NCBI RefSeq assembly: GCF_963921235.1
Contig: NC_086097.1
Coordinates: 42,844,001 to 42,904,000 of the forward strand
Length of the DNA: 60,000 nt
Origin: Mobula hypostoma
Lineage: Eukaryota
Direction of reading: 5' to 3'
Part shown: positions 8,134 to 53,907 of the stretch, piece after piece
How the letters are laid out: every line of letters starts with the position of its first letter
Position numbering within the stretch: position 1 is the stretch's first letter
Translations under genes and position numbers: made by a program
The notes under the pieces: generated by a model
What the model was told of the DNA's origin: nothing
What the model saw: only the letters and a program-made list of their open reading frames with translations
The model's database searches: none

Positions 8134-8379
8134 TCAAACACGAGGAAATCTGCAGATGCTGGAAATTCATTCCAGCAACACACACAAAGTGCCAGTGAAT
8201 GCAGCAGGCCAGGCAGCATCTATAGGAAGAGGTACAGTTGAAGTTTCAGGCCGGGACCCTTCATCAGGACTAACTGTTTCAGCTCCTGATGAAGGGTCTC
8301 AGCCCGAAACGTCGACTGTACCTCTTCCTAGAGATGCTGCCTGGCCTGCTGCATCCACCAGCAATTTTTGTGCGTGTTG
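8134..8379. mobile_element. PLE insertion made of two inverted pLTR ends, each with a hammerhead motif
   Basis: TSD CCCTTTTCTTTAC at 8121-8133 and 8380-8392. Minus motif at 8235-8271; plus motif with CTGATGA at 8286-8292 and GAAACGTC at 8306-8313. Confidence 0.85.
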
Positions 8380-8544
8380 CCCTTTTCTTTACGCATCATT
8401 TCTACATCTCCGCGATGTGTTTTCTCTTTCCCAATCCTAGTGAAGGAATCTGAACCATTAACCTATTTTTCTTTCCAGAGATATTGCCAAGTCTTATTTT
8501 TTTTAAAGCACTTTGTTTATATTTCATCTGTAGATTTTTTTTCT

Positions 8545-8758: not shown

Positions 8759-9180
8759 ACTTTTTTCTGATTCTCAATGCTTAGGCCTGAGAGAGGAGGC
8801 TAATTCTGGTTTCATTATAGTCCCTGTGGTGGTATTTCTCCAGTGCTTTGAGGTTCCTGCTGTAGGTAATTTGCATCTCAAAGCACAGTTGAGGGCAGGG
8901 ATCACAGCAGCTTGGTAGAACACAAGCTTTGTGCTGGTTTTGATGTCCAGATTTCAGATGGGTTTTACTGTAAATAACCTAAGGAATTGCAAGAAAGTAG
9001 GTCAAATGGATTGTGATAACTTTAAAGGGGTCTGTCAACCTCAAGGAAATTCAACACCAGGATCTTACACCACCACCACCTCCCTGTGGCTAAAAAAAAA
9101 ACTGTTCCCCAAATTGTTCATGTAAGAACAGACATGACCTTCATCGTGAAATGGAAAGAGAACATTAAGTGCAAATAAGC

Positions 9181-10100
9181 ACAAAATACTCTGCAGATGC
9201 TGGGGTCAAGGCAACACTCACAACATGCTGGAGGAACTCAGCAGGTCTGGCAGCATCCGTGGAAACGATCAGTCAACGTTTCAGGCCAGAACCCTTCAGC
9301 AGGACTGAAGAGGGAGGGGACAAAGGCCCTATAAAGATGGTGGGAAGGAGAAGGCTGGTAGGTTCCAGGTGAAAACGAGTAAGGGGAAAGATAAAGGGAT
9401 GGGGGAGGGGAAGCAGGGAGGGGATAGGCAGGAAAGGTGAAGAAGGAATGGGGGAAAAGAATGGGTAGTAGAAGGAGGCGGAACCATGAGGGAGGTGCTG
9501 GGGGAGGGGGCAGAGTGAAATAGGGATAGGGGAAGGGAGGGGAAGGGAATTACCAGAAGTTGGAGAATTCTATGTTCATACCAAGGGGCTGGAGACTACC
9601 TAGACGGTATATGAGGTGTTGCTCCTCCAACCTGAGTTTAGCCTCATCATGGCAGATGAGGCCATGTATGGACATATCTGAATGGGAGTGGGAAGCAGAG
9701 TTGAAGTGGGTGGCTACTGGGAGATCCTGTCTGTTGTGGCGGACGGAACGGAGGTGCTCGACGAAGTAGTCCCCCAATCTGCGTCAGGTTTCACCGATGT
9801 AGAGGTGGCAACACCGGGAGCACCGGCTGCAATAGATGACCCCAACAGACTCACAAGTGAAGTGTTGCCTTATCTGGAAGGACTGCTTGGGGCCCTGAAT
9901 GGTGGAAAGAGAGGTGGTGTCGGGACAGGTGTAGCACTTACGCTTACAGGGATAAGTGCCGGGTGGGATATCCATGTGGATCAGGGAGTCGCGCAGGGAC
10001 CGATCCCTGCGGAAAGCAGAGAGGAGTGGAGAGGGAAAGATGTGCTTAGTGGTGGGGTCCTGTAGAAGGTGCCAGAAGCTGCGGAGGATAATGTGCTGGA
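9181..10100 (-). mobile_element. Penelope-like element, 5'-truncated: GIY-YIG endonuclease remnant, 3' UTR and pLTR
   Basis: PGTYPCKRKCYTCP...FTCESVGVIYC...LYIGET and EHLRSV...VATHFN peptides; 15-bp TSD TAAGTGCAAATAAGC (9166-9180 / 10101-10115); mutated hammerhead motif at about 9270-9306. Confidence 0.9.
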
Positions 10101-10645
10101 TAAGTGCAAATAAGCTTTTCCTACTGAGGTTGGATGAGACAAGAACTAGAGGTCAAGAGTGAAAGATTAAAAGGGGACATGAGAGGGAACTTCTACATTC
10201 AAAGGGTGGGTGAGAGTGTGGAACGAGCTGCCAGCAGAACTGTTCAAGAACAAGTTTAATTCTCATTCAGCCATACACATGTATACAGTGAAACGAAACA
10301 TCGTTCTTCCAGACTCAAGATGCAAACCACAATACATAGAGTCACATGCAGAACACACAGCAATGATCGCACAAACAGCAACAGAAATAATATTGGAACG
10401 AATGGTATGGCCCAAGGATTGATGATGCATGGGAACTTGCACTGGAGCCACATTTCTATAAGAGCAAGTACATGGTGGATGCTGGTTCAGTTTCAACCTT
10501 TCAGAGAAATTTGGACAGGTAGATGTTGCGACAGGTATGGAGTGCTATGGTCTGGGTGCATGTCAATGAGACCGGGCAGAAGAATAGTCTGGCACAGACA
10601 AATGGATGGACTGAAGGTCCTGTTTCTGTGCTGTAGTGTTCTATG
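10101..10645 (+). mobile_element. CR1 3' end fragment with a short internal insertion (about 10242-10450)
   Basis: GTGAGAGTGTGGAACGAGCTGCCAG and a 3' end CCTGTTTCTGTGCTGTAGTGTTCTATG like the CR1 at 3635-4986. Confidence 0.7.
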
Positions 10646-12658: not shown

Positions 12659-14248
12659 CAGTGCCTATAAAATGTATTCACCCCCTCCCCGCCTTGGAAG
12701 TTGTCATGTTTTATTGTTTTACAATATTCAATCACAGTAATTTGGCTTTTTTTTAAAACACTGATCAACAGAAAAGACTCTTTCATGTCAAAGTGAAAAC
12801 AAATTTCTACAAATTGGTCTAAATTTATTACAGTTATTAAACACAAAATAATTGATTGCATAATTACTCACCCCTTTCAAGTTAGTATTTAGTAGATGCA
12901 CCTTTGGCAGTAAATACACAATCTTGAGCCTGTGCGGATTGGTCTCATTCTTTGCACATCTGGACACTGTAATTTTTCCCCATTCTTCTTTACAAAACTG
13001 TTCAAACTCTGTCAGATTGCATGGGGATCGTGAAGGAACAGCTCTTTCACACATCCTTCCACAAATTCTCATTTGGCCGCTCCAGGACATTAACTTTGTT
13101 GTTTTTATGCCATTCCTGTGTAGCTTTGGCTTTATGCTTGGGATCATTGTCTTGCTGGAAAACAAATCTTCTCCCAAGTAGCAGTTTTCTTGCAGAATGC
13201 ATCCTGTTTTCCTCCAGGATTTCCCTGTATTTTGCTGCATTCATTTTACCCTCTACCTTCACAAGCCTTCCAGGGCCTGCTGCAGTGAAGCATCCTCACA
13301 GCATGATGCAGGCACCACCATGCTTCATGGCAGGGATGGTGTGTTTTTGATGACGTGTGGTGTTTGGCTTACACCATAGCGTTTAGTTTGATGGTCAAAA
13401 AGCTCAATTTTGGCTTCATCAGATCATAATACCTTCTTCCAGCTGACTTCAGAGTCTCCCACATGTCTTCTAACAAACTCTAGCCAAGATTTCATGTGAG
13501 TTTTTTTTTCCCCAACAGTAGCTTTCTCTTTGCCTCTCTCCCATAAAGCTGCAACTGGTGAAGCACCCAGACAACAGTTGTTGTATGTGCAGTCTCTCCC
13601 ATCTCAGCCACTGAAGCTTGTAACTCCTCCTGAGTTGTCATATGTGTCTTGGTGTCTTCACTCACTAGTCCCCTTCTTGCACAGTCACTCAGTTTTTGAG
13701 GATGGCCAGCCCTAGACACACTTACAGCTTTGCCACATTCTTTCCATTTCTTGATGATTAACTTAACTATACTCCAAAGGATATTCGGTGACTTGGAAAT
13801 TTTCTTGTATCCATCTCCTGACTTGTTCTTTTCAATAACCTTCTCACAGAATTGCTTGGAGTGTTTTTGTGTCTTTGCAGTGTAGTTTTTCCCAGGTTAC
13901 TGACTCAGCAGCAGATAGAGCTTCCAGATACAGGTGTGTTTTCACAACAGTCAATTGAATCACCCTGACTGCACACAGGTGATCTCCATTTAACTAATTA
14001 TCACTGCATCAGTGACGATTTAGTGTGTCATATTAAAGGGGGTGAATACTTGTGCAATTTATTATTTTGTGTTTTAGATTTGTAAGTAATTTAGATCACT
14101 TTGTAGAGATCTGTTTTCACTTTGACACAAAAAGAGACTTTTCTGTTGATCAGTGTCAAAAAAAGGCCAAGAAAAATTCAATATTATAAAACAATAAAAC
14201 ATGGAAACTTCCAAGGGGGGGGGAGGTGAGTACTTTTTATAGGCACTG
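12659..14248 (-). mobile_element. Full-length Tc1-family DNA transposon with decayed transposase
   Basis: TA|CAGTGCCTATAAAA ... TTTTATAGGCACTG|TA; long inverted repeats of roughly 230 bp with an inner repeat of the TACTCACCCC/TATTCACCCC motif; minus-strand fragments RAGHPQKLS, FVFQQDNDPKHKAK, ENLW and FEQFCKEEWGKI, broken by frameshifts and stops. Confidence 0.93.
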
Positions 14249-18729: not shown

Positions 18730-19655
18730 CCCTGCATCGGCACTGATCTGGGCCAACAATTACGTGCTAGGCGGCACCTAATTAATTAGCATATTTATTT
18801 CAGCTTTTTTCTTAAAGACGTGGTGTGTGCCTCCCGGCTACCACTGCATTCTCCGCGAATCGGTACAGTATCTGTCCGGGGCCTGAGGGTTGGGGTGGTG
18901 GGACACGGGGGTGTCATCTCATCGTCGATCAGGGCAGGCAGCTCATCTTCTCCTATGACTGCCCACCTCGATGTCGAAGGTCAAGGTTCGTCGTCTGCTG
19001 TGGCTGATGTGGAAGGCTTGCTTGACTGCTGAGCCTCGAGCATTTTTCTATCACACAGTTTTTTGTAAGGACTCAAAACATCCTGCAAATATCTCCTAAA
19101 CCTACATACCCTTTCAAAATTAAAGTCGTACTTTATCATTGCAGCGAAAATCTCACGCAGTTGCTTCACATTCAGTTCTTGGACGACTTCACTTTCGCTA
19201 CTGCATTGGGTTTCGATTGTTATCCTTTCCTCTTCCAATTACATCAGCTCTTCATCTATCAGTTCTTGGTCATGGGATTCCAAAACCTCTTCAACATCAC
19301 CTTCGTCAGCTTCCACAAGCCAAACTCACTTTGTCCTTGCTTCGTTCATCACGATCGAAACACTTAATTATGTCTAGTTTTATGCTAAGTGTAACACCCT
19401 TACGAGCTCTTTTAGGCTTTTCCGATACCTTAGAACTCATCTTGCAAACAGCTGCTCAATGCAACGTGTTTAAACAATGCCGTTCCGAATCCGGGGGGAG
19501 AGCGGCTGCTTGGGGTGCGCGCTGCCTTTTATCGCGCGCTGCCTTTCTTCATAGCAGTGAAAACACCTTCTGAAAGCGAAAACAGGGTACTAATGTAGGT
19601 TTTTCGTAACAGTGAGGTTTCGTAAAGCAAACGTTCAAAAAGCGGGGGACACCTA
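18730..19655 (-). mobile_element. Tigger/pogo-like non-autonomous DNA transposon fragment
   Basis: Right end AAAAAGCGGGGGACACCTATA resembles a Tigger TIR plus TA; acidic C-terminal transposase-like peptide EEERITIE...LNVKQLREIF; no matching second TIR found. Confidence 0.6.
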
Positions 19656-19656
19656 T

Positions 19657-20330
19657 AATTCCAATCCCTATTCCTATTCCAACATGTCAGTCCATGGCTT
19701 CCTCTACTGCCATGATGAGGCCACTGTCAGTTTGGAGGAGCAACACCTCATATTCCGTCTGAGTCATCTCCAAACTGATGGTATTAGCATCGATTTCCCT
19801 AATTTCTGGTAATTTTCCCCTCCCCATTCACTCTTCTTTCATTCTGCACTCTGGCTCTTCTCTTACCTGTTCTCTTCTCTTCACCTGCCTATCACCTCCT
19901 CCTTCCCTTTCTCCCATGGCCCAGTCTCCTCTCCTATCAGATTCCTTCTTCTTCAGCCCAGTACCTTTTCCACCTATCACCTCCCAGCTTCTCACTTTAT
20001 CCCCCTCCCCCACCCACCTAGCTTCCCCCTCACCCAACCTCATCCATCACCTTCTAGCTAATGCTTCCTCCCCTCCCCCATGTACTTCCCCCTTCCTTTC
20101 TTCCCCTCCCCCATGTACTTCCCCCTTCCTTTCTTCCCCTCCCCCATGTACTTCCCCCTTCCTTTCTTCCCCTCCCCCATGTACTTCCCCCTTCCTTTCC
20201 TTCCCCCTTCCCATGTACTTCCCCCTTCCTTTCCAGTCCAGATGAAGGGTCTCGGCTTGAAACACCAACTGTTTATTCCTTTCCACAGATGCTGCCTGAC
20301 CTGCTAAGTTCCTCCAGTATGTTCATCTGT
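19657..20330 (+). mobile_element. Penelope-like element 3' end
   Basis: SNMSVHGFLYCHDEATVSLEEQHLIFRL...IDFPNFW* C-terminus, pyrimidine-rich UTR and a degenerate hammerhead at about 20235-20270. Confidence 0.85.
20067..20232 (+). repeat. 33-bp minisatellite, about 5 units, inside the PLE 3' UTR
   Basis: CATGTACTTCCCCCTTCCTTTC recurs at spacings of 33, 33, 33 and 34 bp. Confidence 0.92.
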
Positions 20331-26315: not shown

Positions 26316-26384
26316 GCTAAATTTGGGACGGAGTAAATTGATTGGGTTAAAATTCCCGAAAGAAAGAAAAGACAAACAGCAGAA

Positions 26385-28373
26385 ATGGAGGTTGAGGAGT
26401 TTATAAAGGCGCCGACCTTGGAGGCATTAGAGGATGCCAGGAAATCGGAATTGATAGCTGTGGCCAAACGGTTGAATCTTGCTAAGGTGAAGTCGACAAT
26501 GAGGAGAGAGGAGATACACAGAGCTATCGTAGAGCACTATGTATCTAAAGGTGTGTTTCCCCAAGGTGAGCTGGGGGTGGTGTCTATGGAAAAACCTGCT
26601 GGAGACGCGGTACAGGTACAGCTTGAAAAACTGAGACTCGAGCACGAGTTCCGGGTACGGCAGTTAGAACACGAAGAGAAGCAGTTAGAAAGGCAAGAGA
26701 GAGAGAAAGAGGTAGAAAGGCGGGAGAAAGAGAAAGAGGTAGAAAGGCAAGAGAGAGAAAGACAGTTGGAGAGAGAAGAGAAAGAGAGGGACAGACAGTT
26801 GGAGAGAGAGGAGAAACAGAGGGAAAGGGAATTTGAGCTGGAGAAGTTAAAGATAAGGGCCGAGCAGGGGCTCGTGCCGAACCAAGGTGGAGGGTTCCGG
26901 GCGACCCAGGAGGTTAGGCTGGTTCCCCCATTTGGCGATACCGACGTGGATCGGTACTTCCTCCACTTCGAAAAAGTGGCTATAAGTCAGGACTGGCCGA
27001 GGGAGAAGTGGGTTGTTTTACTTCAGAGTGTACTGAAAGGGAAGGCCCAAGAAGCTTACTCAGCTTTGTCCGCGGAAGATGCCCAGAGGTATGAGGTGGT
27101 GAAAGAGGCCATCCTCAGGATTTATGAGTTGGTCCCGGAGGCATACCGGCAGAGGTTCCGGAATGCGAGGAAGCGGTGGGACCGCACGTATTTGGAGTTT
27201 GCTCGTGAGATGCAAACATATTGTGAGCGTTGGTGCGCCTCGAAAGGGGTAGAGGGGGATTATGACAGACTGCTACAACTGATCCTGATTGAGCAGTTTA
27301 AAGGTTGTGTCCCTGAGGGTATGAGACCCTACCTCGATGAGAAAGAGGCAGCCACGTTAGCCGCAACTGCTAAGTTAGCGGATGAGTATGCGTTGACACA
27401 TAAAATGAAGTTTGCCCCGAGTAAAGGCTACCAGAAGGGTAGTCAGGACGGAGGGGAGAGTCCGCCGGAAAAGTCAGAAAGTAAGCCGGGGACTAGTGAA
27501 AAGGGTAAGGTAGACCGGGAGCAGTCTGGTAGGAAGTCTCCTGGGGTCGTCTGTTATAATTGTGGGAAAGCCGGACACTTTGCGTCCAGGTGCTTTGCCC
27601 CAAGGAAGGAGACGGGGAAAGGAAAAGCGGAAATTTGGAATGGCTGTATCAAGCTGTTAAGCGAACCGCTAGGGAAGGACAGGTCTGAAAAAGTCCAGGA
27701 AGGGCGCGAGAGGTTTATCTCGGACGGACTGGTGTCAGTGAAGGAGAGGTTAAAACCAGTTCCAGTGCGGATCTGGAGAGACACGGGAGCGTGTCAGCCA
27801 CTAATACTGAAGAGTGTATTAGAGTTTAGCTCAGAGACCCAGACTGGGGAGGTAGAGGTCAAAGGTGTTGGGGAAGGGACAGAGTCAGTCCCTTTGCACC
27901 AGATACACTTACAGAGCAACCTGGTCTCTGGACTAGTCACGATCGGGGTGAGGTCCGAATTACCGATGAAAGACGTGGAAGTCTTGCTCGGTAATGACAT
28001 CGCCGGAGGAATCGTGTTCCCAGTCGTGAGATTGATAGGTCAGCCTGCCAACAGTGAGGCCCCGCCCATGGACTCACAGGTTCATCGCGGGCCCGCGATG
28101 GTGAATTTGGCTGAAATATTTCTGCCAACCTTGTATGAGACAGGGTGTAGTGAGATAAGAGGTAGTGAGGGAGCTGGGACGGACGTAGCAGTAGCCAGGA
28201 AAGAATTTGTGCAGACGCAGGAGCGAGACGAGGGGCTGATGGTTTTGGCAGAGACCGCTCTCTCTGACACAGCTTTAACAAGGGAACTAGTAGGCTATTG
28301 TGCGGGTGAGGAAGACAGTCGACAGAATTATGAAAGACTTTTACTGGCCAAACATGAGGAAAGATATTGTTGA
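26385..28373 (+). CDS. gag: Gag-protease ORF: coiled coil, capsid with SCAN-like domain, CCHC knuckle, aspartic protease; the last ~25 aa are out of frame
   Basis: 662-aa ORF; FLHFEKVA..WPREKW..LKGKAQEAY; PEAYRQRFR..LILIEQF; CYNCGKAGHFASRC; IWRDTGA. Confidence 0.9.
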   Translation: MEVEEFIKAPTLEALEDARKSELIAVAKRLNLAKVKSTMRREEIHRAIVEHYVSKGVFPQGELGVVSMEKPAGDAVQVQLEKLRLEHEFRVRQLEHEEKQLERQEREKEVERREKEKEVERQERERQLEREEKERDRQLEREEKQREREFELEKLKIRAEQGLVPNQGGGFRATQEVRLVPPFGDTDVDRYFLHFEKVAISQDWPREKWVVLLQSVLKGKAQEAYSALSAEDAQRYEVVKEAILRIYELVPEAYRQRFRNARKRWDRTYLEFAREMQTYCERWCASKGVEGDYDRLLQLILIEQFKGCVPEGMRPYLDEKEAATLAATAKLADEYALTHKMKFAPSKGYQKGSQDGGESPPEKSESKPGTSEKGKVDREQSGRKSPGVVCYNCGKAGHFASRCFAPRKETGKGKAEIWNGCIKLLSEPLGKDRSEKVQEGRERFISDGLVSVKERLKPVPVRIWRDTGACQPLILKSVLEFSSETQTGEVEVKGVGEGTESVPLHQIHLQSNLVSGLVTIGVRSELPMKDVEVLLGNDIAGGIVFPVVRLIGQPANSEAPPMDSQVHRGPAMVNLAEIFLPTLYETGCSEIRGSEGAGTDVAVARKEFVQTQERDEGLMVLAETALSDTALTRELVGYCAGEEDSRQNYERLLLAKHEERYC

Positions 28374-30826
28374 ATACTGTAGGCGATGTCATTTGTGTCA
28401 GGTAGTAGGGAAGCCAAATCCGGTCCTGACTAAAGCGCCCCTTCGACCGATACCCGCTTTCGGGGAACCTTTTTCCCGAGTCATCGTGGATTTTGTCGGT
28501 CCCCTGCCCAGAACCGCGAGTGGGCGGGAGTATGTGATGACCATGATGTGCGCCGCCACCAGGTTTCCGGAGGCTGTGCCCCTGACAAGCGTGAAGGCGC
28601 CCGCCGTGGTAAAGGCGCTTGTGAAATTTTTCACTACGGTAGGGCTGCCCAGGGAAATCCAGTCGGATCAGGGGAGCGTCTTCACATCTCACACCTTCCG
28701 ACGGATGTTGGATGAGATGGGAGCAAAACAGATTTTAGCCTCTGCGTACCACCCTGAGTCACAAGGGGCGTTGGAATGATTCCACGCCACCTTAAAGACA
28801 ATGATTAAAATTTATTGTCAAGAAAACGCTAGGAGCTGGGATGATGCTTTGCCCCTCCTCTTATTTGCCGTGAGGGACACGGTCCAAGAGTCATTGGGGT
28901 TCAGCCCATTCGAGCTCGTCTTCGGTCATCGGCCCAGAGGACCCTTGACCTTACTAAAAGGGCAATGGTCCAGTCCGGCAGTTCAAGTTAATGTGATTGA
29001 TTATGTTTTAAAATTTCGTGAGAGGCTGGAAAGGATCTGTGACCTTGCCAAAGAAAATCTGCGTCACTCCCAGACTAAAATGAAAAAATGGTATGATAGG
29101 CGTGCCCGCGAAAAAGAGTTCCAAGTGGGCGATCGGGTCTTAGTTCTGTTCCCAGTGGTAGCCAACCCCCTTCAGGCGAGATTCCACGGTCCGTACAAGG
29201 TAACTAAGAAGATAGACCCTTTGAACTATGTTATCGAAACACCGGACAGGCGTAAACCCACACAGTTGGTACACATTAACATGTTAAAAGCCTACCACGA
29301 TCAGACAGAAAACCCGGTTGGTGTTATCACGGAAATTACTGAGACTGGAGAGTCGAATGAGACGGGAAAAACCCATCTTGAAAAGGTGAATATGGTGCCG
29401 ACCCGATTGGAGAACTCTATTGTTCTGGCTAATCTTGCTGACAAAGTCTCTCACCTAACCCCCGAACAAAGCGGGCCATTGATAAAGTTAATTAAACGGC
29501 ACACAGATGTATGTCCCGATGTCCCGAGGCGATGAAAAGGGACGGTGCATGATGTTGTGGTCACCTCAGATCAGCCTATTAAACAGCACCCCTATAGGAT
29601 GAACTTGGAGAAGGGCAAACTAGTGGAGAAAGAGATTGAGTACATGCTAGCCACAGATATTATTAGGCCATCCCAGTCGGAATGGGCGTCTCCCTGCGTG
29701 GTTGTCCCGAAAGCCGATGGGGGCATCCGATTCTGTACAGATTACAGAAAAGTGAACGCCATCACAAAAACTGATGCTTACCCCATCCCAAGGGTAGACG
29801 ATTGCATCGATAAAGTGGGGAGAGCTACGTACATCACCAAGGTCGACTCGCTGAAAGGATACTGGTGTGTCCCTTTAACCGACCGGGCGAGAGAAATCTC
29901 GGCATTTGTCACCCCCTCCGGTTTGTACGAGTATAATGTTCTACCTTTTGGCATGAAAAACGCCCCAGGGACCTTCCAGAGAATGATTAATTCAGTAATA
30001 AAGGGACTCAGGAACACAGAAGCATATATTGATGATTTAGTGGTCTGGAGTGACACGTGGGAGGAGCACATTGTGGCGGTGGGGGAGCTATTTAAACAGC
30101 TGTCTGAAGCCAGACTGACAGTGAACCTCGCAAAAAGTGAGTTCGGCCACGCGAAGGTCACTTATCTGGGATTTGTGGTGGGACAGGGGCAGCTGGCTCC
30201 GATGCAGGCTAAGGTGCGGGCTATCTCGGAGGTCCCCACCCCGACAGACAAGAGAGCCCTGAGAAGGTTCTTGGGGATGGTGGGGTACTACAGGAAGTTT
30301 TGCAAAAACTTTGCGGATATTACTCTCCCTCACTAAGCTTTTGCCAAATAATGCGAAGTTCGTGTGGGACGACCTTTGTCAACAAGCCTTCGAGAGTCTG
30401 AAGGCGATTCTATGTCACCATCCTGTGCTGAATGCGCCTGACTTTTCAAAACCCTTCTCTCTAGCAACAGATGCTAGCGACGAAGCTGCCGGGGCGGTGC
30501 TGTTGCAGACAGACAAAGAGGGGGTTGAGCACCCAGTCGCTTACTTTTCTAAGAAATTTAATACCCATCAGAGGAACTATTCCACTGTGGAAAAGGAGCT
30601 ACTGGCCATCATATTAGCATTGCAACATTTTGAAGTTTATATTTGCCCGGCACGAAAACCACTGGTAATTTACACTGACCACAACCCATTAGTGTTTTTG
30701 GCCACTATGAAAGATAAAAACAGAAGATTGCTAAGTTGGAGTCTGATGCTACAGGAATTTGATATAAAAATTAGACATATAAAAGGCACGGAAAATGTGA
30801 TCGCTGACTGTCTGTCAAGGTGTTGA
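28300..30826 (+). pseudogene. pol: Disrupted pol: integrase (28300-29300), reverse transcriptase (29545-30330), RNase H (30330-30826)
   Basis: FYWPNM..CRRCHLCQ, VDFVGPLP, SDQGSVF, YHPESQGALE, GPY; RFCTDYRKVN, LPFGMKNAPGTFQR, YIDD; TDAS, YTDHNPL, NVIADCLSR. In-frame TGA at 28777-28779 and 29533-29535; frameshift near 30330. Confidence 0.93.
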
Positions 30827-38922: not shown

Positions 38923-39454
38923 CACCGGGTGACCACATTATTTGGCACAGGAGCAGAACCTGGTGTGGTCTTCTGTTGCTTTGGCCCATCCACTTCAAAA
39001 TTTGACATGTTGTGCATTCAGAAATGCTTCTCTTCACACCACGGCTGTAACACATAGTTATTTGAGCTTCTGTCGCCTTCCTGTCAGTTTGAACTCGTCT
39101 GGCCATTCTCCTCTGACCTCTCTCATTAACAAGGCATTGTCACCCACAGAATTGCCGTTTACTGAATGTTCCTTTGTTTTTAACACCATTCTCTGTAAAC
39201 TCTAGAGACGGTTGTGTGTGAAAATCCCAGGAGATCAGCAGTTTCTGGGATACTCAATCCACCCCATCTGACACCAACAATCGTTCCACTGTCAAAGTCA
39301 CGTAGACAACATTTCTTCTCCATTATGAACAAGTCAACCTCTTGACCATGTCTGCACGATTTTATACATTGTGTTGCTGCCACACGATTGTCTGATTAGA
39401 TATTTGCACTAACAACAGGTGTACAGGTGTACTTAATAACGTGGCCACCAAGTG
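38923..39454 (-). mobile_element. Internally deleted Tc1-family element
   Basis: TA|CACCGGGTGACCACATTATTTGG ... AATAACGTGGCCACCAAGTG|TA imperfect TIRs; paired-type HTH peptide LRDFDSGTIVG..GLSIPETADLLGFSHTTVSRVYREW. Confidence 0.82.
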
Positions 39455-43474: not shown

Positions 43475-43846
43475 GGTGAAGCCTTATCATTCCTGATGAA
43501 GGGTCTCAGCCCAAAACGACAACGCATTTACTCTTTTCCATAGATGCTGGATGGCCTTCTGAGTTCCTCCATCATTTTGTGTGTGTTCACAACAGGAATT
43601 CTGCAGATGCTGGAAATTCAAGCAACACACATCAAAGTTGCTGGTGAACGCAGCAGGCCAGGCAGCATCTCTAGGGAGAGGTACAGTCCACGTTTCAGCC
43701 TCCCCCTCCCACTTTCAAATCTCTTACTAACTCTTCCTTCAGTTAGTCCTGACGAAGGGTCTCGGCCTGAAACATCGACTGTACCTCTTCCTAGAGATGC
43801 TGCCTGGCCTGCTGCGTTCACCAGCTACTCTGATTTTGTGTGTGTT
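43475..43846. mobile_element. PLE pLTR fragment with a second, inverted-pair PLE insertion nested in it (43588-43832)
   Basis: Outer TSD TCCTGCTTATCCT (43462-43474 / 43847-43859); inner TSD ATTTTGTGTGTGTT (43574-43587 / 43833-43846); hammerhead motif at 43745-43780. Confidence 0.85.
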
Positions 43847-45416: not shown

Positions 45417-46100
45417 CAGTCAGAATCAGGTTTAATATCACTGAAGTGAAATATCTTGTTTTGTGGCAGCATGACAAGGTGTAAAAAAAATAAATCAAAT
45501 ATTTTGTTGTTTGTGTTGGAATTGTCACCCCTGTGCATTGGGGACTTCATACCAGGTGGTGATGCAGCCAGTCAGAACACTCCCCATGGGAGATCTGTAA
45601 AAATTTGCTACAGTCTTTGATGATATACCAAATCTCCTCCGAAAGCTCCTAATGAAATATATCACAAACAAAAGGAATTCTGCAGGTGCTGGAAATCCAA
45701 GCAACACACACGAAGTGTTTCAGCCTGAAAGGCCGACAGTACTCTTTGCTGCCTGGCCTGCTGAGTTCCTCCAACATCTTGTGTGTGTTAATGTAATATT
45801 TAGTCGCTGGCATTCACTCTTTGTGATTGCGTCAATATGTCCTCTGAGATGCTGATTCCCAGAAATGTGAAACTGCCCACCCTTTCCACAACTGACCCCC
45901 TCATCGAGGACTGGTGTGTGATCTTCTGACTTCCCCTTTCTGAAGTCTACAATCCTTGATCTTGTTGACATTGGTACAAATTTGTTGCTGTGGCATCAGT
46001 CTACCAGCCAATCTGTCTCACCCCTCTACACTACCTCAATACCACCTCAATACCATCAGAGATTCTGCCAACAACAGCAGTTTCATCGGCGAAGTTACAA
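45417..46100 (-). mobile_element. Degenerate Rex1 fragment with a small inverted PLE insertion (about 45663-45788)
   Basis: RIVDFRKGK and NFYRSPMGSVLTGCITTWY peptides; CAGAATCAGGTTTAAT tail. Confidence 0.75.
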
Positions 46101-47550: not shown

Positions 47551-48413
47551 GGAGTTGTGTCTACATCAGAGGTATCAACCACATCTGAATACAGTGACAT
47601 CTATATTCTTAGCCAAAATGAAGATGATTAGTTAACTCTCCAACAATCACATCTAGAAATAACATTTGGACTAATTTTAAAAATATGAATTACAGAATCA
47701 CTAACCTGTATTCTGAGTATTTGCTGGAGAATTTGAAGCTTCTTTGAGTGCTGTTGTTTAAATTATTGTACTGCTACAGTATATGAGGCTGGAAATATGA
47801 TGCTATTAGGCAGGAACTTGGGAGCAGATGTTCTCAAGGAAATGCATGGCAGAAATGTGGGAAATGTTCAAGGAACATTTGCGTGGAGTTCTTCATAGGT
47901 ACTGTATGTTCCATTGAGCCGGGGAAGGATGGTAGGGTAAAAGAACCATGGTGTACAAAGCATGTAGAAAATCTAGTTAAAAAGAAAAGAAAAGCTTACA
48001 GAAGTTTCAAGAAACTAGAAACTAGTTTAGAGCTCTATAAAATTACAAAGGTGCCAGGAAGGAGCTCAAGAATGAAATTAGAAGAGCTAAAAGGGGCCAT
48101 GAGAAGGCCTTGGGGAGCAGGATTAAGGAAAACCCCAAGGTATTCTACAAGTATGTGAAGAGCAAGAGGATGAGCCGTGTGAGAATAGGACCAATCAGGA
48201 GTGAGAGTAGAAACGTGTGCATGGAGTCGGTGGAGGTAGCAGAGGTACTTAATGAATACTTTGCTTCAGTATTCACCAGTGAAAAGTACCTTGGCAATTA
48301 TGGGGATGACTTACAGCGGACTGAAATGCTTGACTTTATAGACTAAGAAAGAGGATGTGCTGGAGATTTTGAAAGGTATTAAGTTAGTTAAGTCTCTGGG
48401 ACCAGACGAGATA

Positions 48414-48757
48414 GTCATAGTCATAGTCATACTTTATTGATCCCGGGGGAAATTGGTTTTCGTTACAGTTGCACCATAAATAATTAAATAGTAATAAAAC
48501 CATAAATAATTAAATAGTAATATGTAAATTATGCCAGGAAATAAGTCCAGGACCAGCCTATTGGCTCAGGGTGTCTCACCCTCCAAGGGAGGAGTTGTAA
48601 AGTTTGATGGCCACAGGCAGGTATGACTTCCTATGACGCTCTGTGTTGCATCTCGGTGGAATGAGTCTCTGGTTGAATGTACTCCAATGCCCAACCAGTA
48701 CATTATATAGTGGATTGGAGACATTGTCCAAGATGGCATGCAACTTGGACAGCCTGG
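48414..48757 (-). mobile_element. Rex1-type 3' end with (ATGACT)n tail inserted in the CR1
   Basis: Minus-strand RLIPPRCNTERHRKSYLPVAIKLYNS; ATAGTCATAGTCATAGTC tail; GAGATA on both flanks. Confidence 0.78.
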
Positions 48758-49831
48758 AGATATACCCCAGGCTACTGTGGGAAGTGAGGAAGGAGATTGC
48801 TGAGCCTCTGGTGATGATCTTTGCATCATCAATGGGGATGGGAGAAGTACCAGAAGATTGGAAGTTTGCAAACGTTTTCCCTTGTTCAAGAAAGGGAGCA
48901 GAGATAACCTAGAAAATTATAGACCAGTGAATCTTACTTCAGTGATGGGCAAGTTGTCAGAGAAAATCCTGAGAGGCAGGATTTATGGGCATTTGGGGAG
49001 ACATAGTCTGATTAGGGATAGTCAGTATGACTTTGTCAAGAGCAGGTCATCCCTTACAAGCCTGACTGAATTCTTTGAGGATGTAACAAAACACATTGAT
49101 GAAGGTGAGCAGTGGATGTAGTGTATATGGATTTCAGTAAGCCATTTGATAAGGTTCCCCAGGCGAGGCTCATTCAGAAATTAATGAGGCATGGGATCCA
49201 AGGGGACTTTGCTTTGTGGATCCAGAATTGCTTTGACGACAGAAGGCAAAATGTGGTTGTAGGTGGTTCGTATTCTGCATGGAGGACAGTGAGCAGTGGT
49301 GTTCTGCAGGGATCTGTTCTGGGGCCCCTCCTCTTTGTGATTTTAATAAATGACCTAGATGAGGAAGTAGAAAGGTGGGTTAGTAAGTTTGCTGACACAA
49401 AGGTTGGGGTGTTGTGGATAGTCTGAAGGGTTGTCAAAGGTTACAGTAGGACATCAATAGGATGCAGAACTGGGCTGAGAAGTTGCAGATGGACTTCAAC
49501 CCAGTTAAGTATGAAGTGGTTCATTTTGGTAGGTCAAATTTGAAGACAGAATATAATACTAATGGTAAGACTCTTAGCAGCGTGGAAGATCAGCGAGATC
49601 TTGGGGTCCGTGTCCATAGGACACTCAAAGCAGCTGCACAGATTGACAATGTTGTTAAGAAGGCTTGTGGTGTGTTGGCCTTCATCAACCATGGGGTTGA
49701 GTTCAAGAGCCATGAGGTAATGTTACAGCTATATAAGACCTTGGTCAGACCCCACTTGGAGCATTGTGGTAACCTCATTACAGGAAAGGTGTGGATACTA
49801 TAGAGAGAGTGCAGAGGAGATTTACAAGGAT

Positions 49832-51173
49832 CACACATCAAAGTTGCTGGTGAACGCAGCAGGCCAGGCAGCATCTCTAGGAAGAGGTGCAGTCGACGTT
49901 TCAGGCCGAGACCCTTCGCCAGAACTAACTGAAGGAAGAGTGAGTAAGAGATTTGAAGGTTGGAAGAGGAGGGGGAGATCCAAAATGACAGGAGGGGGAG
50001 GGATGGAGCCAAGAGCTGGACAGGTGATTGGCAAAAGGGATACGAGAGGATCATGGGACAGGAGGTCCGGGAAGAAAGACGGCGGGGGGGGTGAACCCAG
50101 AGGATGGGCAAGGGGTATATTCAGAGGGACAGAGGGAGAAAAAGGAGAGTGAGAGAAAGAATGTGTGTATAAAAGTAAGTAACAGATGGGGTACGAGGGG
50201 GAGGTGGGGCATTAGCGGAAGTTAGAGAAGTCGATGTTCATGCCATCAGGTTCATGCCCAGACGGAATATAAGGTGTTGTTCCTCCAACCTGAGTGTAGC
50301 TTCATCTTTACAGTAGAGGAGGCCGTGGATAGACATATCAGAATGGGAATGGGATGTGGAATTAAAATGTGTAGCTACTGGGAGATCCTGCTTTCTCTGG
50401 CGGACAGAGCGTAGGTGTTCAGCAAACCGGTCTCCCAGTCTGCATCGGGTCTCACCAATATATAAAAGGCCACATCGGGAGCACTGGACACAGTATATCA
50501 CCCCAGCCAACTCACAGGTGAAGTGTTGCCTCACCTGGAAGGACTGTTTGGGGCCCTGAATGATGTTAAAGGAAGAAGTGTAAGGGCATGTGTAGCACTT
50601 GTTCCGCTTACACGGATAAGTGCCAGGAGGGAGATCAGTGGGGAGGGATGGGGGGGACGAATGGACAAGGAAGTCGCGTAGGGAGCGATCCCTGCGGAAA
50701 GCGGGGGGGGGGAGGAGGGAAAGATGTGCTTAGTGTTGGGATCTCTAACTTCTGCTAATGCCCCACCTCCCCCTCGTACCCCATCTGTTACTTACTTTTA
50801 TACACACATTCTTTCTCTCACTCTCCTTTTTCTCCCTTTGTCCCTCTGAATATACCCCTTGCCCATCCTCTGGGTTCCCCCCCCCGTCTTTCTTTCCGTA
50901 CCTCCTGTCCCATGATCCTCCCGTATCCCTTTTGCCAATCACCTGTCCAGCTCTTGGCTCCATCCCTTCCCCTCCTGTCATTTTGGATCTCCCCCTCCCC
51001 CTCCAACTTTCAAATCTTTTACTCACTCTTCCTTCAGTTAGTCCTGACGAAGGGTCTCAGCCTGAAACGTCGACTGTACCTCTTCCTAAAGATGCTGCCT
51101 GGCCTGCTGCGTTCACCAGCAACTTTGATGTGCGTTGCTTGAATTTCCAGCATCTGCAGAGTTCCTGTTGTTT
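49832..51173. mobile_element. Penelope-like element (-) with an inverted pLTR/3' UTR copy (+)
   Basis: GIY-YIG peptide GVIYCVQCSRCGLLYIGETRCRLGDRFAEHL (50238-50534, minus); about 390-bp inverted repeat 49832-50228 vs 50743-51131; TSD GAGATTTACAAGG (49817-49829 / 51174-51186). Confidence 0.92.
51040..51075 (+). ncRNA. Minimal type I hammerhead ribozyme motif (PLE type)
   Basis: AGTC-CTGACGA-AGG(GTCTCAG)CCT-GAAA-CGTC-GACT: stem I AGTC/GACT, intact core, stem II AGG/CCT, palindromic ACGT in place of stem III, GUC triplet with predicted cut after 51071. Confidence 0.8.
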
Positions 51174-51366
51174 GAGATTTACAAGGTTGTTGCCTGGATT
51201 GGAGAATAGGCCTTATGAGTATAGGTTGAGTGAACTTGGCCTTTTCTGCTTGGAGCAACAGAGCATGAGAGGTGACCTGCTAGATGTGTATAAGATGATG
51301 AGAGACATTGCTGATGTGGATAGTCAGAGGCTTTTTCCCAGGGCTGAAATGGCTAACACAAGGGGG

Positions 51367-51387
51367 AGGGTTAGGGTTAGGGTTAGG
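51367..51387 (+). repeat. Short interstitial telomeric tract AGGG(TTAGGG)2TTAGG
   Basis: Read directly; absent from the homologous CR1 position near 38335-38350. Confidence 0.7.
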
Positions 51388-52032
51388 CTTTTAAGGTGCT
51401 TGGAAGTGGGTACAAGTGGGATGTCAGAGGTAAATTTTTCGCACAGAGTGGTCAGTGCATGGAATGCACTGCCGGCAAAGGTGATAGGGTCTTTATAGAG
51501 ACTGTTAGATAGGTACATGGAGCTTAGAAAAATGGAGGGCTATGTAGTCGGGAAATTCTAGGCAGCTTCTAGAGTAGGTTACATGGTCGGCACAACATTG
51601 TGCGCCGAAGGGCCTGTAACGTGCTGTAAATTTCTACGTTTCTAAAATGAGTTGACTACAAGTTCTGCCTTGACACCATTTTATTAACTCATACCGTGTT
51701 ATCAATAGGCACACTACACAACTGCAACGCCAGGCGTTCTTCCCACTGTAGTTGTTACTTCCAGCCACTAGATGTCACTGTAGAGGAGGCAATACAGAGA
51801 GCTGGCTGCAGTGTTCATGTCCATCTCCATCTAGTGTTAAGAGTTGGAATTGCAGCATCGAAATGTTTAGAGGGCAGATCACTTTCAAAAAGTTGGAAAT
51901 CAGATCTCAAAAACACAAAACAATTTTTTTTTATTTAGCTCAATTTTTAATCAATATAAAAGTGATGAAACTTCAGAGCAAAATAAAGACACAAGACGAT
52001 TTAATTAAGATGGAAATATTAAGAACATATCC

Positions 52033-52322
52033 ATGCACAGTAGTATTGTGGTTAGCACAACACTTTACAGTACAGGTGACCCAGCATCAATTTCCGGCAC
52101 CGCCTGTAGGGAGCTTGTATGTTCTGCCCATGACCACGTGGGTTTCCTCTGGGCTCTAGTTGCCACCCACGGTCCAAAGATGTTCCAGTCGGTAAATTGT
52201 AAATTGTCCCATGATTAAGCTAGGATTACATCAGGGGAATTGATTGCTGGGTGCGTGGTTCGAGGACCCAATTCTGTGCTATATGTACATATATGTATAT
52301 ATATACATAATAAATAAATAAA
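52033..52322 (+). mobile_element. Degenerate V-SINE (HE1-like)
   Basis: tRNA-like head GCACAGTAGTATTGTGGTTAGCAC; V-domain-like GGAGCTTGTATGTTCTGCCCATGACCACGTGGGTTTCCTCTGGG..CCCACGGTCCAAAGA; (TAAA)n tail. Confidence 0.75.
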
Positions 52323-53907
52323 TTGTTTTAAGTAGGTTAGGTGAAAAATATTTGTTGAGCATCAGACTTCAATAATTTAAACCAGAAAGTGTAAGGAAAT
52401 TGCACAACAGACTAATGTCAGATGAGCAAAATGCGTAAACTAGATTGCAGAGAATGGTTTAATTTGAAGAGTGTACATCAATAAATACTGAATTAATTGT
52501 AAACCAACATTAAATTAACTCCAACTAAAAACTGACCAAAATTTCTGTATCAACATGTAACTAGGAACCCTGGGATTTCTAAAGAAACTTTTAAAACAGA
52601 AATTGGCTGAAAAATTTGTGAATTGTGTCCATAGATGATTGACCCACAGATGCAATTAATCCATCTGCTTGCTCCACACAAGGAATTATGATACAGAAGT
52701 ACAGAACTATGACTTCAGAAGCAGGGGTAGACCACTTGGCTCCTCACCCCTGCTTGCCTGCCATTTAAGAAAAAGGTTGGCCGCAGTATTTTCATGCTCA
52801 CAGATGATTGCTCATTATGATCATTTATTTTCAACGTGCTGAAAACTGATGACAGTTACTAGTTAAGTCACCAGAATCATGGCCATGTGTGGTGTTATTT
52901 GGAAAAATATGGTACTGTAAAGAGATGGGCATTTGTACCAATAACTTGTGATTTTTTGCATCATTAAAAGATGGTAGAAAAATCTCTGACAGTTTTTCAG
53001 GAGCAGGTGAGGGAAATAATGGAAGATTTCTCATACAGACCTGTTATGGCATGGACTCAGCAGGCCTAATACCCTTCTTCCATAACGTGAAGAAATATAC
53101 TAGGAACAGCTAATGTCTGTGACAGATAAGAACTGAGTTAATCTTGTGTCAACTAGATTATATATAAGTATGTGTACTAAATGAAGAAAAATGTTACCAG
53201 TTTCCACACAAAAGGGCTTGAAATACGGCTGATGTTAACAATATCTTACTGTTCTCTAATGTGTGAGCTGACATTAGGCTAGGAGTTCTGATATCATATG
53301 AGAATCTGTTTATTGTGGAACAAGTTGAACTCCAGCAGTACTGGGTGGGTGGAAGACAATGATGAACTGAAGGGAGTTCTGGGTGAAATCAGTCACCATC
53401 AGCTGCTACAGTGCATTAGTTGGGGTGCTGAAAGTGTATAAACCACTGGGGTGAGAAACCTACGTCTAGGTACAAAAGAACAGTGAATTTGGATTTCTAT
53501 AGTAAGGCAAACACAAGTCCAAAACGGTGAAAAATAATAGCAAGAAAGAATGCAACAAAGCACAAAAATATTAATAAACATGCAGACTGGTAAATTAATT
53601 TCAATGGAGTGTGAGGGGATGCATTTTAAGAGAAGAAATAAGAAAGCCACAAACTTTACAGGAAACATATTTAGCATCATGATTACTAGAGCATGGAAGC
53701 TTGTTCTTCCAAATGTATTGAAATTCAGACCTTAATTTGCAAAATTATCCCTCTCTGCAAGTATATTATTCTTCTTTTGTGTACAATGAATTAAATCATA
53801 CTTTATCTTTGAAACACTGCATGGTTCAGTAAGCATTTTTCAGTTGGAATGGTGACATGGCTTGCTGTTCTATCTTTTGTTCAGCACTGCTGATCCTTTA
53901 TAAACTG

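Follow-up and report, generated by a model that had tools for sequence, protein, structure and literature searches.

Architecture of the insertion

The window, that is, the whole 60,000-nucleotide stretch of Mobula hypostoma DNA that was analyzed, contains at 49830-51173 a Penelope insertion of 1,344 bp that is 5' truncated and bounded by a 13-bp target duplication (Table 1). It interrupts a decayed LINE, which we take to be CR1-like from its C-terminal motifs. The LINE frame resumes across the duplication, and the separately translated flanks overlap in RFTR. About four telomere-like TTAGGG-type units lie within the LINE remnant to the right of the insertion (51366-51388).

Table 1. Features of the insertion and of its hammerhead motif (window coordinates)
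Feature	Position	Strand	Basis or detail
Decayed LINE reverse-transcriptase region hosting the insertion	49109..51420	+	RVT_1, E=3.4e-11 at 49109-49423
Left 13-bp target-site duplication	49817..49829	+	Repeat comparison
Element-sense pseudo-LTR, 3' end of truncated copy, without tail	49830..50228	-	Arm alignment
Second, element-sense hammerhead, damaged	49890..49927	-	A6->G in core, C2.1->U in stem I
Linker and GIY-YIG endonuclease remnant	50238..50729	-	PF01541, E=5.3e-4; protein relatives
Inversion junction, truncated sense copy/inverted arm	50741..50743	.	Putative 2-nt microhomology (50742-50743)
Inverted arm: last Penelope ORF codons, pseudo-LTR, motif, tail	50742..51173	+	Inverted-repeat comparison
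Minimal type I hammerhead motif	51039..51076	+	Sequence, core pattern, folding, structural descriptor
Stem I, 5' arm/3' arm	51039-51043/51072-51076	+	4 Watson-Crick pairs plus U51039·G51076
Core C3-A9	51044-51050	+	CUGANGA
Extra unpaired A, between positions 9 and 10.1	51051	+	Folding
Stem II	51052-51055/51060-51063	+	GGGU/GCCU, 4-nt loop
G12-A15.1	51064-51067	+	GAAA
ACGU palindrome, positions 15.1-16.1, without loop 3	51067-51070	+	
C15.2, G16.2, U16.1, C17	51068, 51069, 51070, 51071	+	
Predicted cut	51071/51072	+	After GUC triplet
Tail of 37 nt, inverted arm only	51137..51173	+	Matches published tails of 30-40 bp (PMC8557442, PMC11167929)
Right 13-bp target-site duplication	51174..51186	+	Repeat comparison

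The inverted arm is 95 to 96% like the pseudo-LTR (pLTR) that follows the GIY-YIG remnant; the two arms differ at 17 of 395 aligned sites, or about 2.2% per arm, and both came from one event. The family stop codon falls within the inverted arm at 50756-50758, the loose-end consensus at 50742 in sequencing contigs coincides with the end of the ORF, and the hammerhead lies 286 nt past the stop codon. The motif at 51040-51075 thus sits in the inverted arm and not in the element-sense arm. Microhomology at the junction is suggested by the Asp-Pro that the family carries at that place.

The match of the minus-strand remnant to PF01541 scored 20.7 bits, below the curated cut-off of 22.6. The GIY-YIG remnant nevertheless shows CCHH, with two cysteines between GIY and YIG, and is preceded by a CX4CX2C linker that fits the CX2-5CxxC of Neptune and Nematis, the two groups being defined by this linker and by the inter-GIY/YIG cysteines (PMC8557442). 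Among its 14 longer relatives, the best were ray proteins, with 89% identity for Mobula hypostoma and 73 to 77% for Hypanus sabinus. The longer relatives carry reverse transcriptase (RT) motifs ahead of the linker, and RT is absent from the copy at 49830-51173. Several ray and shark proteins (P0004, P0005, P0009, and P0010) contain the Penelope endonuclease region despite host-gene names (kinase domain 1C, mucin-2, and chitinase-domain protein), through either annotation read-through or exonisation. Since a pLTR, an inverted 5'-truncated arm, a tail, and a target duplication are all present as well, the element, judged by its sequence, would fit Neptune or Nematis and is called here a Neptune-type EN+ Penelope.

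For such elements, both an inverted 5'-truncated copy and a one-end tail of 30-40 bp have been described (PMC8557442, PMC3846280). As presented there, Neptune-type EN+ Penelope-like elements (PLEs) share with the ray copy the C-terminal GIY-YIG domain, the two cysteines, the CX2-5CxxC linker, the 5' truncation, the inverted arm, the one-end tail, and the target duplication, but the ray copy differs in being without RT and without a direct partial tandem. In PAc, the Poseidon element of Anolis carolinensis, two RT start sites bound the tail, and both strands are cut and extended (PMC11167929). In both PAc and the ray element, the hammerhead precedes a tail-bounded 3' end by about 100 nt, and the ray tail fits the two RT starts of PAc; PAc, however, is a Poseidon element without the cysteine linker that is active and has been tested, whereas the ray copy is truncated. 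The architecture may be accounted for by twin priming, in which element protein supplied in trans would have introduced nicks on the two strands at a spacing of 13 bases, with reverse transcription primed twice, once at each of two start sites 37 nt apart. The products would be a long sense arm that lacks the tail and a short inverted arm that has it, joined by microhomology.

The motif is a minimal hammerhead of the Penelope type

The initial annotation had reported an intact minimal type I hammerhead in a Penelope pseudo-LTR, and the 36 bases that it quoted were found exactly at 51040-51075 on the plus strand, in the pLTR arm of the Neptune-type insertion. Stem I, the CUGANGA/GAAA core with its NUH (here GUC) triplet, and the loopless ACGU palindrome in place of stem III were all recovered as annotated, the core and triplet in sequence, pattern, and descriptor searches alike, and the proposed cleavage after C51071 agrees with the predicted cut. 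The core pattern matched twice in 60 kb, a count reached by none of 100 shuffles. A structural descriptor also matched twice, at 43749 and 51044; shuffled windows gave one match in 5 of 200 cases and two matches in none of 200. Because both counts exceeded those of the shuffles, the motif is not a chance occurrence. Within the window, no copy other than that at 51040-51075 has the ACGU palindrome in combination with both stems and an intact core. The hammerhead search that had been suggested thus succeeded with the descriptor, but Rfam returned no hammerhead match in the whole window at the gathering threshold and none in 50900-51200 up to E=10, where two unrelated chance matches appeared.

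The part of the annotation that had to be revised was stem II, which had been read as AGG/CCU with a 7-nt loop. Folding favored G51052·U51063, G-C, G-C, and U·G, with pair probabilities of 0.88 to 0.98; the A-U register had a probability of 0.02 and was rejected. The favored register is that of the published consensus CUGANGAH-G..., in which helix II opens with G10.1 paired to a pyrimidine; this pair is G-C in the consensus and G51052·U51063 here.

Minimal hammerheads (min-HHRs) in metazoan PLE pLTRs were described by Cervera and De la Pena in 2014 (PMC4209133). The ray motif has in common with these CUGANGA followed by one extra base, G10.1, a short helix I (4 Watson-Crick pairs plus U·G, against 4-5 bp), the loopless palindrome, the GUC triplet, and the pLTR location. 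An Acropora Neptune row of that alignment also shares its C7 core, 4-bp helix II, and CGUC. The ray motif has a short, 4-bp helix II with a closing G·U pair; by eye, G·U occurs in 8 of the 56 rows, one of these eight being a Schistosoma motif tested in vitro. Cartilaginous fish are absent from these 56 rows, although other supplements of that study could list one. The legend of Fig. S4A in the same work describes a truncated element whose 5' end bears a second min-HHR, carried on the other strand. The motif at 51040-51075 is therefore a genuine min-HHR-type motif of Penelope-like elements, and its kind, its pLTR location, and the inverted arrangement are already published. As for related reports, the word Penelope does not occur in the consulted passages of a ray-genome preprint, and a literature search for shark Penelope hammerhead ribozymes listed one review.

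The family is very large, and its core appears conserved

With nhmmer, 18 family pieces were found in 60 kb, several of them in head-to-head pairs. In two of the four sequencing runs sampled (out of 24), 218,951 of 28,298,499 contigs (run X1) and 222,401 of 34.2 million fell on 50230-51400; the other two gave 17,207 of 1.74 million and 12,007 of 1.26 million. All 24 runs consist of contigs, and two of the four sampled are putatively RNA. These counts show a very large family and not a copy number, and contigs show neither RNA ends, strand, nor level. In the best 40 of 211 difference rows, loop base 51059 alone fell within the motif, with G in 69 to 90% of contig depth at that position, and the copy matched the family at all core and stem positions. 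The bases A51059 and A51089 are private to this copy. Among the best-supported rows, loose ends accumulated before 51040 in three of the four runs and behind 51077 in two. Because these loose ends carry the flanks of an older subfamily, the block common to the subfamilies is delimited by stem I on either side. In run X5, contig joints run from 51150 and 51113 back to 51040; such joints might stem from short, retrozyme-like tandem units at other places in that genome, the kind of joint not being given.

Six older copies in the window were identical to the copy at 51040-51075 at 33 of 36 core bases and 21 of 24 GAAA bases. Identity was 30 of 60 just downstream of the motif, 134 of 198 further downstream, and 15 of 84 upstream, where the flank is partly non-homologous. 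This conservation suggests that the core was under selection in the source lineage. The stem register given in Table 1 paired 84.3% of cells in 12 copies, compared with 12 to 51% when it was slid. The covariation score of these 12 copies, which are few and neutrally decayed, was reached by 295 of 500 shuffles; the remaining 6 of the 18 window copies were excluded as being without the 5' part of the motif. At position 11.1 (51063), U was present in 6 of the 12 copies (G·U) and C in 5 (G-C). Because the C form lies in a CpG, decay of the CpG may account for some of the U copies. Since both arms of two young insertions share the U, the source element likely carried G·U.

Outside the window, 29 metagenome loci with 40 to 63% identity were found, most of which stop before the pLTR; one (L013) matched the descriptor, on the opposite strand. 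At L013:1583-1615 (minus strand), a minimal hammerhead whose helix II has 7 bp and whose palindrome is AUAU lies on the strand opposite a Penelope RT match about 1.2 kb distant.

Intactness of the copy and surrounding sequence

That the motif is the sole fully intact copy among the 18 window pieces might point to a regulatory ribozyme kept by the host. The motif, however, carries 3 of the 17 arm differences, compared with 1.6 expected, one of which is in the loop of the 51040-51075 copy itself (51059), and the probability that 32 to 38 sites remain unchanged at this arm divergence is 0.44 to 0.50. Neutral decay would thus leave the motif unhit about half of the time, so intactness needs no selection and is no sign of function. 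The motif also belongs to a transposon nested within a transposon, and a nearby host gene was not found by Pfam searches of 25 long frames and of 150 of 349 further candidates: 13 of the former and 5 of the latter matched Pfam, all of them to transposon-type domains, in a search by which short exons would be missed. Retention by the host is accordingly very improbable.

Other mobile elements of the window include an LTR-retrotransposon remnant (26337-30826, plus strand) with SCAN and zinc-knuckle domains, in which the integrase C terminus lies ahead of RT and RNase H, a Gmr1-like order (the name as used in PMC8557442). A Tc1/Sleeping Beauty-type transposase helix-turn-helix remnant lies at 13495-13896 (minus strand), and a second, weak helix-turn-helix match lies at 39183-39395 (minus strand). 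Older-subfamily copies with an endonuclease remnant and a pseudo-LTR were seen at 9150-10110 (minus strand) and 19640-20330 (plus strand), with core changes in both motifs.

The copy lacks a tandem partner, and a closed fold is predicted for it

It had been proposed that the copy, unable to fold as a monomer, could cleave when paired with a second copy in tandem or in trans. Monomers of such motifs are reported as inactive and dimer activity as low (PMC4209133), and a review describes cleavage as dimers (PMC6765202). In the active form, two motifs would form stem I between strands and stem III from ACGU/ACGU, with the cut after C17. In the source element, the motifs of tandem units would pair through ACGU and cut after GUC, weakly and probably with help from the element's protein.

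No tandem partner is present at the locus. No direct repeat of the motif was found in 48000-53000, and the sole neighboring copy, carried inverted on the other strand, is mutated in its core; it would therefore act as an antisense arm and not as a dimer partner. On the same strand, the closest whole core belongs to a copy 7.3 kb upstream that reads ACAU in place of the palindrome. A retrozyme-like tandem at the locus was accordingly rejected. Non-LTR retrozymes, which occur in the sole chondrichthyan sampled in a recent preprint (bioRxiv 10.64898/2026.07.22.740005), resemble the ray motif in that their type I hammerhead derives from Penelope pLTRs, but they consist of tandem motif-bearing units, whereas the locus holds an inverted pair and an endonuclease remnant.

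The view that the monomer cannot form stem III was borne out, and folding further predicted a stable inactive rod that the annotation had not included. In the lone motif, G5-A6-C7-G8 is predicted to pair with C15.2-G16.2-U16.1-C17 with a probability of 0.98, the rod having -11.0 kcal/mol compared with -7.0 for the open form. The active dimer was predicted at -11.5 kcal/mol compared with -22.0 for two rods; this gap of about 10 kcal/mol is overstated, since nearest-neighbor energies omit tertiary core contacts, Mg2+, and proteins. In longer plus-strand contexts, the probability of stems I and II was 0.02 to 0.41. The whole insertion is predicted to fold at -965 kcal/mol on the plus strand and -944 on the minus strand, with the motif paired to 49891-49927, and a transcript across both arms would bury the motif in a hairpin of about 400 bp. 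A plus-strand transcript would make the antisense arm first and capture the motif in this long duplex, and one initiated between the two arms would leave a rod-folded monomer.

With a tandem partner lacking and a closed fold predicted, cutting by the motif at this locus is unlikely. We consider it a passenger copy of an abundant Penelope hammerhead, likely uncut here, with a probability of roughly 0.85. Several points stand against this reading. The core and stems match the family, so the copy has the sequence needed for cutting; the family has many copies, so a cell may contain trans partners; the energies are overstated as described above; and the review already cited has such motifs cleaving as dimers (PMC6765202). 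Dimer cleavage in trans may be possible in vitro. In vivo, slow cutting of the copy might occur if it pairs in trans with the transcript of another family member, aided by the element protein or a host chaperone, given its whole core, stems, and palindrome, the very numerous family copies, and the protein-assisted cleavage shown for the Anolis element (PMC11167929). Such cutting would, however, require a plus-strand transcript that starts past 50228 or escapes the antisense arm, the rod and the flanking folds are predicted to compete with it, and no host gene domain was found in the candidate frames searched; we regard it as quite unlikely.

Insertion breakpoints and a possible folded signal

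The 5' ends of family pieces cluster at the 5' half of the ribozyme. Ten of 20 window pieces start within -23 to +16 of C3 and 1 of 20 starts near the cut site. Of the 9 young ones, 4 start within -8 to +16 of C3. The cluster fits the copying of uncut RNA, in a small sample in which the apparent 5' ends of old copies may reflect mere alignment loss. Short head-to-head pseudo-LTR pairs were also noted at 8136-8381, 43589-43834, 45651-45789, and 719-871. In the first three, the minus arm reaches the tail end and the plus arm falls about 35 to 45 nt short of it, an asymmetry shared with the 49830-51173 insertion.

These breakpoints, together with the rod predicted in 4 of 6 folded window copies and partially in a fifth, might mean that the family motif is mainly a folded signal and not a nuclease, the rod keeping the RNA uncut and setting an RT stop or switch. 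Uncut RNA is indeed the main template for in vitro insertion by the Anolis element, whose motif cuts solely with protein and is dispensable for in vitro insertion, and for which RNA-seq ends at the cut site were not found in the data presented (PMC11167929). A mere hairpin, however, would not need the core that is kept between subfamilies, and the pieces are few. Moreover, inspection by eye of the published alignment (PMC4209133) found CGU at stem III in 29 of 56 motifs, including all 6 C7 motifs, but 15 of the 29 have A7; since A7 breaks the full rod, these motifs speak against a general rod design. The idea that the motif is mainly a signal is thus doubtful.

A related and equally tentative model would give the ray hammerhead a built-in off switch, in which G5-A6-Y7-G8 would pair with the bases of the dimer stem and cut site until the element protein opens the RNA. 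The same rod would mark the end of reverse transcription, which would explain why short insertions begin at the 5' edge of the ribozyme and not at the cut site. Among titles and abstracts, we found no clear treatment of a rod-type inactive conformation, and we do not claim that it is unpublished.

Returning to the passenger reading, the single locus matters little, since it is one of very many copies and both its motif and its arrangement have been described before. The predicted off-rod would offer a simple reason for the poor protein-free cutting of Penelope hammerheads. The family may be of some use, because the role of these hammerheads is still treated as open in print (PMC8557442) and because a genome rich in young copies allows breakpoint statistics.
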